Assembly (NCBI GenBank): GCA_030324005.1
Contig: JARDVH010000124.1
Location: forward strand, 34,537,076-34,601,075
Length of the DNA stretch: 64,000 nucleotides
From: Negaprion brevirostris
Taxonomy: Eukaryota
Direction: 5' to 3'
A program made the position numbers and the translations under genes. Position 1 is the first letter of the stretch. Each line of letters starts with the position of its first letter. Positions 2,447 through 50,689 of the stretch are shown here, piece by piece. Below the pieces are notes generated by a model. The model did no database searches, had not been told where the DNA came from, and saw only the letters and a program-made list of their open reading frames with translations.

Positions 2447-5035
2447 ACAGTGGCATTGTGGTAAGTCAATGGACTCATGTTCCAGAGGCCCAGGATAATG
2501 CTTTGGAGACATGGATTCAAATCCCATCATGGCAGCCTGTGAAATTTAAATTGAATTAATAAATCTGGAAATAAAAGCTAGTCTCTGTAATTGTGACCAT
2601 CAATGCCAATTGTGTGGAAAAACTCATCTGGGTCACTCACATCCTTTAAGGAATAAAATCTGCTGTCCTTACCTGGTCTGACCTATATATGACTCTGGAC
2701 CCACAGCCTGTGGTTGACTCTTAACTACCCTCACAAATGGATTAGGAAACCACTAAGTTGTAGCAGTTCCATTCCAAAGTTTAAAAAGAATGAAAGCAGA
2801 TGTTCCTCCTGATGTTGAATGACTTAAGCATCAGACACAATGACAGCACACTCAACCCTCCCAACCCTGCAAAGAACTCCTTAATAACATCTGTGGACTT
2901 GTGCAAATATTGGGAGAACTGTCCCACAAACTAGTTGAACAGCAGTCTGACATAGTCATAATCACAGCGTCATACTTTACAGACAGTGGGCTATCATTTC
3001 CTCAGAGTGGTCTTCTACACTGACTTACCTGCTCTTCTTAAGCATCTGTCTTGCCCAACATTCCTGACTGAGGCCAGGTGAAACTTGATTAGCAAAGCAG
3101 TAAATGTAAAAGGGTTGGGGTGAAGGAGGACAAATCCCCTTTTTACAGCACCGGCTGCCATAAAGCAGGTGAGTTTAAAGATCCCATTGACCAGGAGAAA
3201 GTAAGTTTCTAAGGCAAGTGAATGGTGTATGGGGGTGGGATTTGGACATTGGGAGGGGAAGATCCAGACATTGTGTGTTTGTGGGGGGAGTCAGATATGT
3301 AGAGTGGGGGTGGAGTCGGGAGTCGGTCTGCATGTTTAAAGTAATTACTCTGAAGAAGTGCCTCTCTTCCTTCTAATTCTTTCAGAGTAACTATGAGTGT
3401 AAAACTGGTAGAATCATCCAAAATCAGTGATTTAAATTGCTTTGTCAGATGCTTGCCAGTGCAGTGCAATTGTACAGGGGAAGTTGACCCTTCTAGAGAC
3501 AGGAACCAATNNNNNNNNNNNNNNNNNNNNNNNNNNNNNNNNNNNNNNNNNNNNNNNNNNNNNNNNNNNNNNNNNNNNNNNNNNNNNNNNNNNNNNNNNN
3601 NNNNNNNNNNNNNNNNNNNNNNNNNNNNNNNNNNNNNNNNNNNNNNNNNNNNNNNNNNNNNNNNNNNNNNNNNNNNNNNNNNNNNNNNNNNNNNNNNNNN
3701 NNNNNNNNNNNNNNNNNNNNNNNNNNNNNNNNNNNNNNNNNNNNNNNNNNNNNNNNNNNTCCTCCAAATTGAGCACCACTTTGAAGAAGTACTGAGGGTG
3801 GTAAGAGTGCAGAATTCACTGTGGGTGGGGGACTTCACTGTGTATCACCACCACTAACCGAGCTGGTTGCGTCCTAAAGGACATGCTGCTAGAGTGAGTC
3901 TGTGGCAGATGATGAGAAAGCCAGCAAGATCTCACCAATCTAGCTTTTGCAGATGCATCTATCCATGATGGTATTGGTAGGAGAGGTCAGTCCTTGCGGA
4001 GTCAAAGTCATGTCTTCACCTTGAAACTATGCACCATAATGTTATGTGGCACCACCACCCTGCTAAATGGGGTACATTTTAAAAAGATCTAGCAAGTCGA
4101 AACTTGGCATCCATGCTGTGGGCCATCCATTATCAGCAGAATTCTATACAACTACAATCTGTAACTTCATGGCCCTCATATTCCCCATTCTTTCATTACC
4201 ATCAAGCCATGGATCAATCCTGATTCAATGAAGCTTTCAGGAGCAACACCAGGTACACCTACAAATCAAATATTGAAGCAGTCTGTGACTCTGTGCAGCA
4301 AGACTTTGACAACATTGGGGTTGGATTGATAAGTAGCAAGTTACTTTTGTGCCACACAAGTGTCAGGCAATGACCATATCTAAAACAAGCAAATCCCAAC
4401 TACCTTCCATTGGCATTCAATGGCATAGCCCCACTGTCAATATAAGCCTCAAGTGGGCCAGCCATATATGTGCTGTAGCTACTAGAGCAGCAAATACCTC
4501 ATCTCCTGACACGTCAAAGCCTGTCCACTACCTATAAGGCACAAATCAGGATAATGATGGAGTTCTCTGTATTGTCTGGATGAGTACAGTTCTTGCAACA
4601 CTCGAGCTTGACATCATCCAGGATAAAGCAGGTTGTTTTATTGCTACTCCATCTACCAGCTTCATTATTTACTCCCTCCACCACTCTTGCACAGTGACAA
4701 CTGTGTATATCATCCACAAGGTGCACTGGAACAACTTACCACGGGTCCTTCAACAGCACCTCTGACCTCTATTACGAAGAAGGAAAAGGGCAGCAGATGC
4801 ATGGGAACATCATCAGCTGCAAGTTCCCTGTCCAAGCCACTCATCAGCCTGACTTGAAACTATATCATTGTTCCTTCGTTGTTGCTGGTTTGAAATCCTG
4901 GAACACTCATCCTAACAGCAGCATTTATATTTGCAGCAGTTTAAGAAGGTAGCTCACCACTGCCTTCTGAAGAGCAATTAGGGATGATAATACATGTTGG
5001 CCTAACCTGCGATAGTCACATCTCATGAAAGAGCA
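2447..5035 (+). mobile_element. Decayed CR1/L2-group LINE with tRNA-like 5' head, internally deleted
   Basis: SINE-like head at 2447-2760. APE N-terminus NNICGLVQILGELSHKLVEQQSDIVIIT at about 2880-2985 and QIEHHFEEVLRVVRVQNSLWVGDF at about 3760-3840. RT C-terminal remnants at 4280-4900 and 3' end GAGCAATTAGGGATG..CACATCTCATGAA. Confidence 0.8.
2988..3490. mobile_element. Non-autonomous DNA element (Harbinger/Tourist-like) inserted in the LINE
   Basis: Interrupts the APE coding remnant; imperfect inverted ends GGGCTATCATTTCC / GGGGAAGTTGACCC. Confidence 0.45.
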
Positions 5036-6024
5036 TGAAAAGTTGAAATATGCGCACCACTAGGAATAATGGAGTTTATATTAGCAGAATGGTGATTGGC
5101 TTCAGTAAAAACTTAAATGGTTAATTTCAATTGCAAACAGAAGAGGATTGACAGCAAACATACTGTAATTACTATTCAGTGGCTTGCCTAAGAAAGTTGA
5201 ATTCTGCAGTAGATGTTTGATTCATCATTCACATGCAGATTTAGCTGTATTGAGATGTGAATCTATATATGTTCAAATGCTAGCTTCGATTCTGTTGGGC
5301 ACAACAGTTGTTCTTGTTGCATTTGTTGGGTGCAATCTAAAACAAAATTAATAGTGGTAGCAAGAGACTGTCAAGGTGTACGCATTGAATAATCCTTGTT
5401 TATGGAAAAAAAATCAGGTTACAATTGTAAAGCTACAGTTAGTTGCACTGAAGTCTTTCTAATTAAGAATAAAATGGTCTATAAAATAGAAATGTGATTA
5501 TGGCATTTAGAAAATTGTTTGAATTTGCATAATCAACTTTACCAGTACAATTGTACATTTGGTATCATGCCCACGTTTTTCCATTAGCCACGTTTCACAG
5601 TCACACAGTAAAGTGCTGAGGAAACAGGCCTTTCAACTATCGCTTAGCCTTACAGTCAGTTTGATATTGATCCATGTGCATTTTGTGAATTAGCCAAAGG
5701 AAGTGGCTGCTTTCTCAAAGCATGTATCAAGTTCAACATCAAGGGTAACTTGTCACTGTCCAATGCAGCAGAATTTGCTAACCACTCCCAGCAGAGTGTT
5801 ATTTACTTGATCAGGGATAGAGATGCAATACCTTGTCTCATGGCCACTGTTCACACCTACAGTCGGGGGAATAAGTTACAGGTATGGGAGAGACAGTCCA
5901 TCAGTCTCTGTGGCTAAGTTGTCATTTGAGTGACTAGCACAGCAACATCAGTGTCGAACATTTTCCTGATCAGGAAACAGTGTATTTTTATCTTCACTTT
6001 CAGTCTTGATAGGTTTTGGAGATT

Positions 6025-8012: not shown

Positions 8013-8376
8013 TGAAGGAGAATATTCCCAATTGGATTTTGTTCAGGTCTGTCCCAGTGCGTTGCTGCTGTGAGATTCACCTTGAGATTCACACGGGATT
8101 TACAAAACCATCCCTACATCCTCTCTCGTCACATTTTGTCCACTAAATCTTCACTAATCCTCGATATTTCCATTCCAGTTTACATGTGTCTGTTTCCATT
8201 CTGGTATCAGTCAGGTGAGCAAGTGGCCCTGGCAAATTTCTGTATCATTTTGACTCAGTTTGATGGATAGACCTGGNNNNNNNNNNNNNNNNNNNNNNNN
8301 NNNNNNNNNNNNNNNNNNNNNNNNNNNNNNNNNNNNNNNNNNNNNNNNNNNNNNNNNNNNNNNNNNNNNNNNNNNN

Positions 8377-8655
8377 ATAGAAAGTTATTCCATTTACATC
8401 TACAAAGTGAAGAAGCAGGTCCACCCTGCCACTGACAGCTCCTCAAAGGCCATGAGCATTGCGAACTTGTTCGTCAACAACATTTTCAAGCACATCGCAG
8501 GCAAGGTTTCCCACCTGGCCCATTACAAGAAGCGACAGACCATTAGCTCTCCGGAGATCCAGACTGCCATGTGCCTGCTGCTGCCTGGGGAACTGGTCAA
8601 GCAGGTTGTGTTGGAGGCAACGAAGGCGGTGACCAAATACACTAGCTCCAAGTAA
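8377..8655 (+). pseudogene. H2B: Diverged histone H2B copy, open frame, 5' part in an N-gap; probable pseudogene
   Basis: [91 protein letters not shown]. About 20 substitutions from canonical H2B, many of CpG-decay type; no histone 3' stem-loop seen after the stop. Confidence 0.9.
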
Positions 8656-48445: not shown

Positions 48446-49276
48446 TCCCTTCCACATATCTTATGCAGTACACCTGATTAGGTTGAAGTAGGAGAATTAC
48501 TGCCCAAAGACCCTGGGTGCATGTGGCCATCAGCTGAGAATCCAACTCTCCCCTCCTTTTCCCCCTGCACAAAGCTTGCCCTCATTTCTTTGTCATACTG
48601 CTGACTAAGTGGCAATATAAACTACAGCACCTGTAACGGGGAGCACGTGCTCTGAACAGAACCCGGGGTTAAGCATCAAGGTCTCCAGCATCTTCTACCC
48701 CACCCCCTGTAGTCTTAAAAATGGCAATGCAACCCCATGAAACAATTCCATTAACTGCGCGGCAACCAATGGGAATCAATCAGTAATCAGCTTGAAAGTA
48801 GTTGATGGTTCTTTTAAATATCACTGGCGCAAGATCTTCCTACTTATTGTATATTCGGCTGTATGAAGTCGAGGGCGAATATTGTGTTGAGAATGGCACT
48901 GCTAGAGTCAGATCAGCATTATAGGCTGTCGTAGTTCGCCACTCAGTCGCACCCCCAATGCTCGCACTACTGACCAATTCAAAATGATGCTCGGTGCAAC
49001 CCGCACTTGAGGTTTTGTGTGCAGGTTATGTATTAATGTTGAAGTCAAAATAATCAATGTAACGCTGAAAAATTGGACATAATGCATCCGACTTTTGCAG
49101 CTGTTGATTGAAACCGCCTTAAATTGCCAGCGCAGGAGCTGTAGCATGTATCCAGACACAGCTTTGTAACCTCATGCACCAAATAGTACAGGGGAAGATT
49201 CCACACTCTGATTTAATTAGGGTCAACTGTTCCTTTCCTGGATATTTGAATTCCTTACAAGGCAGAAAGGAGCTCC

Positions 49277-49505
49277 TTGTTTTCTGATTTTCGCTAAGAT
49301 CAAGCGTCAAATCAAACCGAAGGTGGGATGCAATGCCTCATCTTGTCAGCTTGGATCATCTGCCTCCCTTGTGGGCACCTTGAATTGGATTCAATTGGAA
49401 ATTGAATTGGTTTTTGGAGCAAGCAAGGAATGGATTTGGGTTTGCCCAGTCCATCTGAGCATTGGCTTTCTAACTTTAAGAATGGAGTAAAAAGAAATTT
49501 TAAAA
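49277..49505 (+). pseudogene. U2 snRNA-derived element (diverged pseudogene or SINE-like copy)
   Basis: TTTTCGCTAAGATCAAGCGT matches U2 nt 15-34 at 18/20. TCTTGTCAG..ATCTG (stem IIa region), TTTTTGGAGCA (Sm region) and a stem-loop III equivalent follow in colinear order, then an A-rich tail. Confidence 0.8.
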
Positions 49506-49609
49506 ATGACCCTGCTAGCACCAGGGTGGTGGTTGGGGGAAAGGGAAACATAAATTGGGTGAAATAGCAGTGGTGTTATGGCCATTACCTAACCATCTGT
49601 GCCTGCCAC

Positions 49610-49705
49610 AACTGGTGAATTGTCATGGGATTTGAACGCAGGAACCCAGAGACTTTCCGTGGGTCTGTGGATTACAAGTCAAACGACAATAGCACTATGC
49701 CACTG
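49610..49705 (-). mobile_element. tRNA-headed SINE 5' fragment
   Basis: GGGATTTGAAC..CCCAGAG..TGGATTACAAGTC..GACAATAGCACTATGCCAC. Confidence 0.7.
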
Positions 49706-50689
49706 GCTACTTATACTGTGACTTTACCAGAGACAGCTGGTGGCCCGTTCATTTATTGGCCAATTGAGGCAATTAAGTATCCAGTTAATGGTCACTGAAG
49801 GCCATCCTCCTGCCACTGTTGGTATTTTACCCACTGAGGGAGGCTGACACCAAATATCCAGCCACCAAGTAAAACCTGGTAAACTAGGTAAATCTGCCAG
49901 GGGGATGGATGGCCCATCTCAAGCCAATTAGCTGCCTAATGGCCATAATACTTGCTCTTATTTCTATTTCAGACTGTTAGGGCAGCTGGTAACTTTCTTG
50001 TCTATGCCAACAAAGGTACAATAAAACCGTTATTGGATGCACTCATCCATAACAAGGTTGCCACAGAAAATGCAGGTGAAGCACAAAGGAGGCTGAGACT
50101 TGCTGGCAAGCAGAAGCAGTATTTCAGGTAGAAAGGAGATAAGGGCAAAATCACACACGCTAGGTGACCATAAACAGGGATGAGAGGGCCAGGTAGCCTG
50201 TAGAGGAGAGAACCAAAGTCTCTATGTATGACCCAGAGTAGCACTCATCACCCANNNNNNNCTGGGAAAAATAAAAACAGCGACCTTCCTGGGCCTTTTG
50301 GCCCCATTCCTGCTGGGCGGGCAGTGCTAATATCAGTGCTTTTGTTTTATTTTTCACATAAATGAAAGCCTGCATTGTAAAATGCAATGAAAGGTTTCTA
50401 TGGTAATGTAATTCATGAGTAGGATAATTAACAGGATCTGCTGGTGTGTGACAACTGATTTAATGGCATTTCTAGATAACAGCTGTGTGTTTGCATTTAT
50501 GATTCATATTCACTCTAAAGTGATCACTCCAGTCTTGAAAGATCCATGAACTGATGCAATTCTACTTGCTGATGTATTTGCTGATATATGTGTTTGATGG
50601 AATGTGGGAAGAAATTAAACTACAACCTAGCTATTGCTTTTTTGTATATTAGATGTGACAGTATGGCAGCTTAGTGGTATAGAGTTGTG

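Follow-up and report, generated by a model that had tools for sequence, protein, structure and literature searches.

A dead copy of a dispersed U2 snRNA-derived retroposon in a shark genome and its likely route of transcription

The window copy and its family

The segment at 49277–49505 of the window (the whole 64,000-nt stretch of DNA analyzed here) resembles U2 snRNA, which raises the question of whether it is a decayed U2 retrocopy, a variant snRNA, or a copy of a mobile element and, in the last case, how such an element was transcribed and spread. An earlier note on this DNA described it as a candidate SINE or variant snRNA. It carries a U2 head (nt 15–34, from the 3′ half of stem-loop I onward) at 49288–49307 on the plus strand, the strand of all element features given below. 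The 18/20 identity reported for this head is reproduced with the genome's own U2 gene (L031, 188 bits), which served as our U2 reference. The single copy by itself is weak evidence, because Rfam is silent on it: RF00004 gives no match in the window at its gathering score (cut-off 46 bits) or at E ≤ 1, a result that the earlier note had said would count against its reading. A head 17-mer with three mismatches allowed is also weak alone, with 0.28 matches expected by chance in 64 kb. Neither U2 upstream flank (the snRNA promoter) has any similarity anywhere in the 64-kb window, and no host gene was identified at the locus from the window's open reading frames.

The genome itself (2.69 Gb) yields 4,461 candidates, a count that may include a sister family, family B. 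Among the 40 of these that were scored, 39 are non-self loci that match at 83–88% over the same span, which bears out the expectation of a multicopy element. Exact-motif searches genome-wide return 112 matches for the head and 300 for the tail, with 0 for reversed controls. On contigs C1–C97, for which neither match list is cut short, the 41 head and 98 tail matches overlap in 3, giving about 3,200–4,100 copies genome-wide with a wide error. The copies are units of ~237 nt with unrelated flanks and have two insertions relative to U2 in common. Many begin at U2 +1, others are 5′-truncated, and the 3′ end is an A-rich tail, with the hexamer AGTAAA in 52 copies and AATAAA in 9. Target-site duplications (TSDs) scoring at least 10/11 are found in 6 of 93 copies versus 1.3 expected under a shuffled-pair null (p = 4e-5), a modest signal; the excess in a 73-copy set has p = 0.0025. 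The proposed TSD check thus succeeds at the level of the family but not for the window copy, whose score of 7/11 lies inside the null. Positions 49288–49506 are one dead copy of this dispersed, many-copy U2-derived retroposon, here called family A. The claim that the segment was copied from a master element, and is more than a decayed retrocopy of U2, holds, as its source is common to thousands of loci.

The source was reconstructed from the copies, with four CpG sites restored. The window copy, a long-loop form with a duplicated head, is identical to source positions 15–221 at 187/203 sites; the 11 nt at 49277–49287, ahead of the point where the source alignment begins (position 15), are either flanking DNA or what decay has left of U2 nt 2–12. 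The source is colinear with U2 from nt 1 to about nt 186 and matches the genome's own U2 at 72% over 177 positions, with 30/30 identities at nt 1–30 and 97/147 (66%) beyond. The family A consensus finds the same U2 with E = 1e-10 for the head and 5e-4 for the Sm/stem III region, and two other family A copies among 20 loci give sub-threshold RF00004 matches of 29.5 and 28.4 bits (cut-off 46). Relative to U2, the source carries 24 nt inserted after nt 30 and 18 nt inserted before the Sm site. By alignment with own U2, the first insertion occupies 49304–49327 and includes a second AGATCAAG; because AGATCAAG is repeated, its placement is ambiguous by a few nt. The non-U2 insertion described earlier behind the head is therefore present, but it measures 24 nt instead of ~30 and follows U2 nt 30. 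It had been placed within the branch-point sequence GUAGUA, ahead of the stem IIa region; that hexamer is missing from the source, and stem IIa lacks two of its six pairs.

The insertion at this locus is found in other organisms. In seven of eight sequencing runs at least one junction is bridged by at least 31 bases, and in four of the eight both are; no empty orthologous site is seen in these eight runs, whose flanks differ by up to 7–8%. In each of six deep runs, 2,699–5,305 contigs map to the stretch; most of the depth falls on the element, and the depth ratios are not copy numbers. The orthologues carry indels at 49267–49277, just 5′ of the element, and organism E has a 16-nt insertion there that is loosely similar to the U2 5′ end. 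Old orthologous insertions are usable as phylogenetic markers.

Family A looks extinct. BLAST-type searches for a master, with 40 candidates scored in each, give no near-consensus copy among the scored matches (the best is 89–90% identical to a copy that is itself 93% identical to the consensus), and the lowest divergence among 123 copies is 4.4%. No intact or promoter-linked family A master was found among the loci scored or examined. No abutting flank, target, or 5′ extension is shared across 136 unique copies, and none of 196 loci examined contains a U1 piece. Tandem family A copies are present at L080:1123–1538 and L092:925–1525; the second copy at L080 starts near source position 34–36, right after the tail of the first.

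Predicted structure of the source RNA and its variants

Folding predicts two long hairpins in the source, one from each insertion; the earlier note mentions neither these hairpins nor the second insertion. Hairpin A (49309–49357 in the window), modeled in the source with a 9-bp outer and an 11-bp inner stem, would stand in place of the branch-point region and stem IIa. Hairpin B (49382–49413) would be built by the 18-nt insertion, which lies at about 49387–49404. Compared with 500 shuffles of each segment, hairpin A has a z score of −4.5, hairpin B −3.6, and stem III −3.2, whereas the 3′ end is not below its shuffles. These predictions suggest that the source RNA gained two long hairpins that replaced the splicing-active region; the hairpins could have begun as inverted duplications. 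The proposed loss of splicing function is made plausible by the absence of the branch-point sequence from the source.

Elsewhere, the source retains much of the U2 pairing: 7/7 pairs of stem I, 6/6 of stem IIb (one of them a wobble; remnant at 49362–49378), 4/4 of upper stem III, and 4/6 of stem IIa. The Sm site at 49410–49417 has the A>G change noted earlier, which is common to all of family A, and is partly paired in predicted hairpin B; in the long-loop form, an Sm-like run is present at source position 127. At 49428–49455, the stem-loop III homologue has a re-registered lower stem, and its upper stem differs from U2 by G–C to U–G and G–U to G–C. The stem had been read as preserved through compensatory pairs, of which the preservation stands. 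Its arms are GGGG/CUCC in this genome's U2 and UGGG/CCCG in the source, and the A at 49448 is CpG decay of a source site, so the perfect U–A pair in the window's stem III arose after insertion. Stem-loop IV is shortened rather than replaced by an A/T-rich tail, as had been supposed. The region at 49456–49490 (z −0.4, no structure above shuffles) combines it with the homologue of the U2 3′ end; over U2 147–191, the source shares 19 of 32 aligned bases and has an 8-nt deletion in stem-loop IV. The homologue closes with AGTAAA at 49486–49491, which we take to resemble a polyadenylation signal, and an A-rich tail with an internal T run does follow, at 49489–49506.

The predicted fold of the whole source has a z score of −3.3 (300 shuffles), compared with −3.8 for U2, −0.13 for the window copy, and a mean of −1.35 for 59 copies. 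Under a neutral-drift null in which U2 is randomly mutated to equal distance, the probabilities are 0.014 for the whole source and 0.004 for the minimum free energy of the stem III region. The copies themselves decay neutrally and show no covariation: substitutions amount to 0.084 in paired and 0.072 in unpaired columns, 23 double changes are observed versus 17.8 expected, and the covariation term is −0.02. The covariation anticipated among copies is thus missing. Because the copies decay neutrally, structural constraint can be inferred for the sources only, from their consensus sequences; the idea of a structurally constrained master remains consistent with the predicted folding, which exceeds both shuffles and the drift null. 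The window copy, a neutral fossil, shows no sign of being functional.

Several forms of the source can be distinguished. A 6-nt indel that separates subfamilies is located in the loop of hairpin B, and a head form without 12 nt of the insertion 1 duplication has 49 exact matches. Head and loop forms are combined in all four ways, in 64, 16, 11, and 9 of 136 copies, with 36 unclassified. An older subfamily, whose stem III is U2-like (72 motif matches), is 14.8% diverged (n = 30) versus 10.0% for the main form (n = 23); for the other forms, the differences in divergence are too weak to give an order (short versus long loop, p = 0.21; head forms, p = 0.05). The four combinations and the older subfamily fit several masters, and they also fit slippage or template switching.

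Family B, which was reached through weak U2 matches, is about 300 nt long and has 3,326 candidates. Its best 30 copies lie 4.7% from their consensus, a figure biased low since these are the top-scored copies. It is laid out as a U2 1–40 head and its inverted complement, an A-like head/hairpin unit, an A-like 36–140 unit, AATAAA, and an A tail. Judged by sequence, family B is a younger sister family that shares hairpin A with apparent compensatory pairs. The hairpin A arms read CAAGAU/AUCUUG in family A and CAAGAC/GUCUUG and UUGGAG/CUCCAA in the two family B units. For stem IIb, the arms are GUCCC/GGGAC (U2), GUCUC/GGGAC (family A), and GUCUC/GAGAC (family B). At family B loci L182 and L228–L257 (G000, e.g., C73:20249061–20249329), the U2 1–40 head is predicted to be locked in a 15-bp hairpin, with two further predicted hairpin units beyond it. 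L158:1568–1860 is a family B copy whose second hairpin has the family A loop sequence, an apparent intermediate, and is followed by a 3′-truncated A head.

The U2 nt 38 site and transcription of the family

A single position in U2 bears on how family A was transcribed. In eight places an A-run is joined to U2 nt 38, preceded by family A in one case, family B in two, a LINE 3′ end in three, masked DNA in one, and a U2 5′ piece in one. A search for U2 39–53 with an A-run gives 11 matches (3 control matches), two of which follow family A and one family B; read-through into U2 38–53 is recorded in two family A copies. At the second family A junction, L339, the element is 5′-truncated and no U2 sequence precedes it, which is what retrocopying of a read-through RNA should produce. 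The chance of one such family A–U2 nt 38 junction over 4,000 copies is about 0.001. These two junctions are the only ones found and may have one common source. At L182, a family B element interrupts U2 sequence at nt 37/38, and at L269 and L060 family B lies directly behind native U2 upstream flanks. No family A copy is seen behind a U2 promoter flank among the matches examined in two promoter searches, 20 of the 46 and 25 of the 41 listed. Insertion at the U2 site is rare: there is no U2-like target at 109 ordinary family A copies, at 29 of 30 B copies, or at 28 of 29 LINE ends, the exceptions being the queries. Relatives of the LINE carry RVT_1 and zf-RVT, and we presume the LINE at the U2 site to be Tx1-like from the resemblance of its C-terminus, along with the shared U2 nt 38 site. 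Its 3′ end has no homology to the family A tail, so a LINE-derived tail for family A was rejected, and there is no enrichment of family A near the LINE (1 of 136 loci).

Several neighboring observations concern the same site. L269 (C182:15361113) and L266 (C115:506022), where a U2 upstream flank is followed by family B, are candidate master-type loci, partly masked or interrupted. At L266, the U2 flank is followed by a 5′ piece of family B and by a disrupted reading frame, presumably LINE-like, with no Pfam or PDB match to an endonuclease domain. At L383, L391, and L397 (3 of 30 loci), family B pieces lie close to the LINE 3′ end, either no more than 30 bases beyond it or some 300 bases ahead of it. 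Divergent U2 genes at L036–L038 (C157:37354999–37356174) and L032–L034 are 81–84% identical to L031, and one divergent type forms a 492-bp tandem array that also has LINE and family B insertions (L060, L264). L039, L040, L056, L183, and L270–L281 comprise U2 retrocopies that extend ~35–40 nt into the 3′ flank of the gene, together with 5′ fragments that stop at U2 nt 44–64, and L331 is U2 15–53 with an A-run.

The reading that we favor, with a fair degree of confidence, is that the window holds a dead copy of an A-tailed, near-whole-U2 retroposon with two predicted hairpins, which probably owed its transcription to U2 promoters after insertion before nt 38 and was probably mobilized by a Tx1-like LINE. 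Rare copies landing at U2 nt 37/38 would be transcribed by Pol II from the U2 promoter, and the transcript would be polyadenylated and then copied by a LINE in a poly(A)-dependent manner, mostly to random sites. Transcription from a U2 promoter would be in keeping with the start at U2 +1, the unaltered head, and the copies with read-through. Use of such promoters by the masters of family A is suggested by promoter linkage seen in family B only; the LINE found at the same U2 site may have been the mobilization partner, and the shared U2 head sequence might help re-entry into U2 genes and so renew masters. A bolder version, to which we give slightly less than even weight, is that of an independent shark lineage of U2 parasites whose splicing region is lost or locked in hairpins, which home to the Keno site in U2 genes and take over the Pol II promoter there, and which renewed themselves in three or more waves (an old A, the main A, and composite B) under selection on RNA structure. 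If true, the capture of promoters by homing into U2 genes would explain how SINEs derived from snRNA come to be transcribed. A whole-U2 lineage in a shark, with aged subfamilies, stems that are compensatory between the families, and junctions at a fixed U2 position with native promoter flanks ahead of them, makes promoter capture testable.

Some of the same evidence could be explained if the copies were processed pseudogenes of a single variant U2-like snRNA gene, itself evolving, that has its own external promoter and a cellular role, with no copy ever becoming a source. Such a gene would account for a source that begins at U2 +1, extends over almost the whole of U2, and has a predicted structure, as well as for the Sm-like run in the long-loop form, and variant U2 genes do exist in this genome at 81–84% identity to L031. 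This explanation seems unlikely to us, however. No near-consensus locus is present among the scored matches, even the least diverged of the 123 copies stands at 4.4%, and a single gene sits poorly with head and loop forms mixed in all four ways, with a composite daughter family, and with family A copies joined to U2 nt 38. Between the SINE and the variant snRNA left open by the earlier note, the several source variants and the lack of an intact master among the scored matches favor the SINE.

Rather improbable is a SINEU-like retroposon whose masters owed their transcription to introns or to unrelated promoters in the flanks, its U2-site insertions being incidental products of a weakly U2-preferring LINE. 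Transcription from flanking sequence was proposed for crocodilian SINEU in the portion of that report available to us (Kojima 2015, PMC4494074), and it would suit a family in which nearly all copies are dispersed and no promoter-linked copy is seen among the loci examined. However, the 136 copies share no 5′ extension, full-length copies start at U2 +1, where a transcript from a U2 promoter would also start, and two copies read through into U2 38–53.

That the insertion created an internal Pol III promoter, which would make the element a Pol III SINE, is very improbable: one B-box-like 9-mer is present at source 37–45, but a Pol III promoter was rejected on the three T runs (T4, T4, and T5) inside the unit and the lack of an A-box match, and the tails with AGTAAA (52 copies) or AATAAA (9) also stand against it. 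It is scarcely credible that the segment is the terminus of a Keno or Utopia LINE, or a decayed U2 pseudogene of the ordinary kind. This genome does have a LINE that inserts before U2 nt 38, and plain retrocopies of U2 abound in it, but the explanation is largely refuted by discrete ~237-nt units with unrelated flanks, two shared insertions, and no similarity to the LINE 3′ end.

Relation to known snRNA-derived elements

Family A has several of the features by which SINEU elements are recognized: a U2 head (nt 1–30), a multicopy unit of less than 500 bp with shared insertions, an A-rich tail, and family-level TSDs. The part of the SINEU report available to us describes these elements from crocodilians only and leaves their transcription as an open question, snRNA promoters being external (Kojima 2015, PMC4494074). 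The closest known system to family A is SINEU-3 of crocodilians. As described there (PMC4494074), SINEU-3 is likewise short, A-tailed, and made of U2 with a shared rearrangement; like family A, it has a U2 5′ piece (~32 nt), internal T runs, no Pol III promoter, and no LINE-derived tail. Both have old copies in the thousands (about 1,600 for SINEU-3), and mobilization of the Tx1 type was inferred. The same excerpts (PMC4494074) give SINEU-3 an internal U2 deletion of ~50 nt and a unique 3′ 40 nt, whereas family A has two hairpin-building insertions and a 3′ end that aligns to U2. They also place SINEU-3 insertions in Mariner-N4_AMi, whereas the 136 family A copies share no abutting flank and insertion at U2 nt 37/38 is rare. 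From this difference in architecture and from the hosts (crocodilians versus a shark), compared by description and not by sequence, we infer that family A originated independently of SINEU-3. An immunoglobulin V segment of the genome matches 3 of 6 candidates, the two with names being lambda light chains of sharks at 80% and 69%, so we take the host as a cartilaginous fish.

SINEU-1 and SINEU-2, in the same partial account (PMC4494074), have recurrent 5′ U2-derived heads and partial duplications, as do family B and probably the family A head. They differ from family A in that the 196 shark loci contain no U1 piece and the family A body is itself derived from U2. The available text on Keno and Utopia reports that they insert at the U2 site, with downstream U2 beginning at nt 39, which corresponds to nt 38 in this genome's numbering (PMC4640811). 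Both are LINEs, whereas family A is non-coding and non-autonomous (PMC4640811, PMC4494074). Keno is described in that text as strictly U2-specific, in contrast to the mostly dispersed LINE of this genome, which has 28 of 29 ends outside U2 and precise nt 38 junctions in 3 loci. Processed snRNA pseudogenes and P7SL-type retrocopies, as far as the accessible text describes them, resemble family A in combining a full-length small RNA with an A tail and a TSD (PMC7245038), but family A has shared insertions, a source 28% diverged from U2, subfamilies, and a daughter family. No shark snRNA-derived SINE was found in the literature searched, the scope of which ended short of subscription journals, Repbase Reports, Dfam, and genome-paper supplements; the portions available of PMC5786205, PMC7245038, PMC5381603, and PMC5499810 add no shark case. 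Family A is real and is probably an uncatalogued SINEU-like family.

Three other features of the window were recorded. A short stretch at 50285–50301, beside an N gap, is similar to the U2 5′ end; it has no BLAST match to the families and is probably there by chance. An open frame at 8254–8655, with its 5′ part masked, resembles what we take to be a decayed histone H2B. Just downstream of the family A copy, on the minus strand at 49570–49720, lies a second repeat fragment with raised contig depth at 49618–49719, which presumably resembles the head of a tRNA-type SINE.
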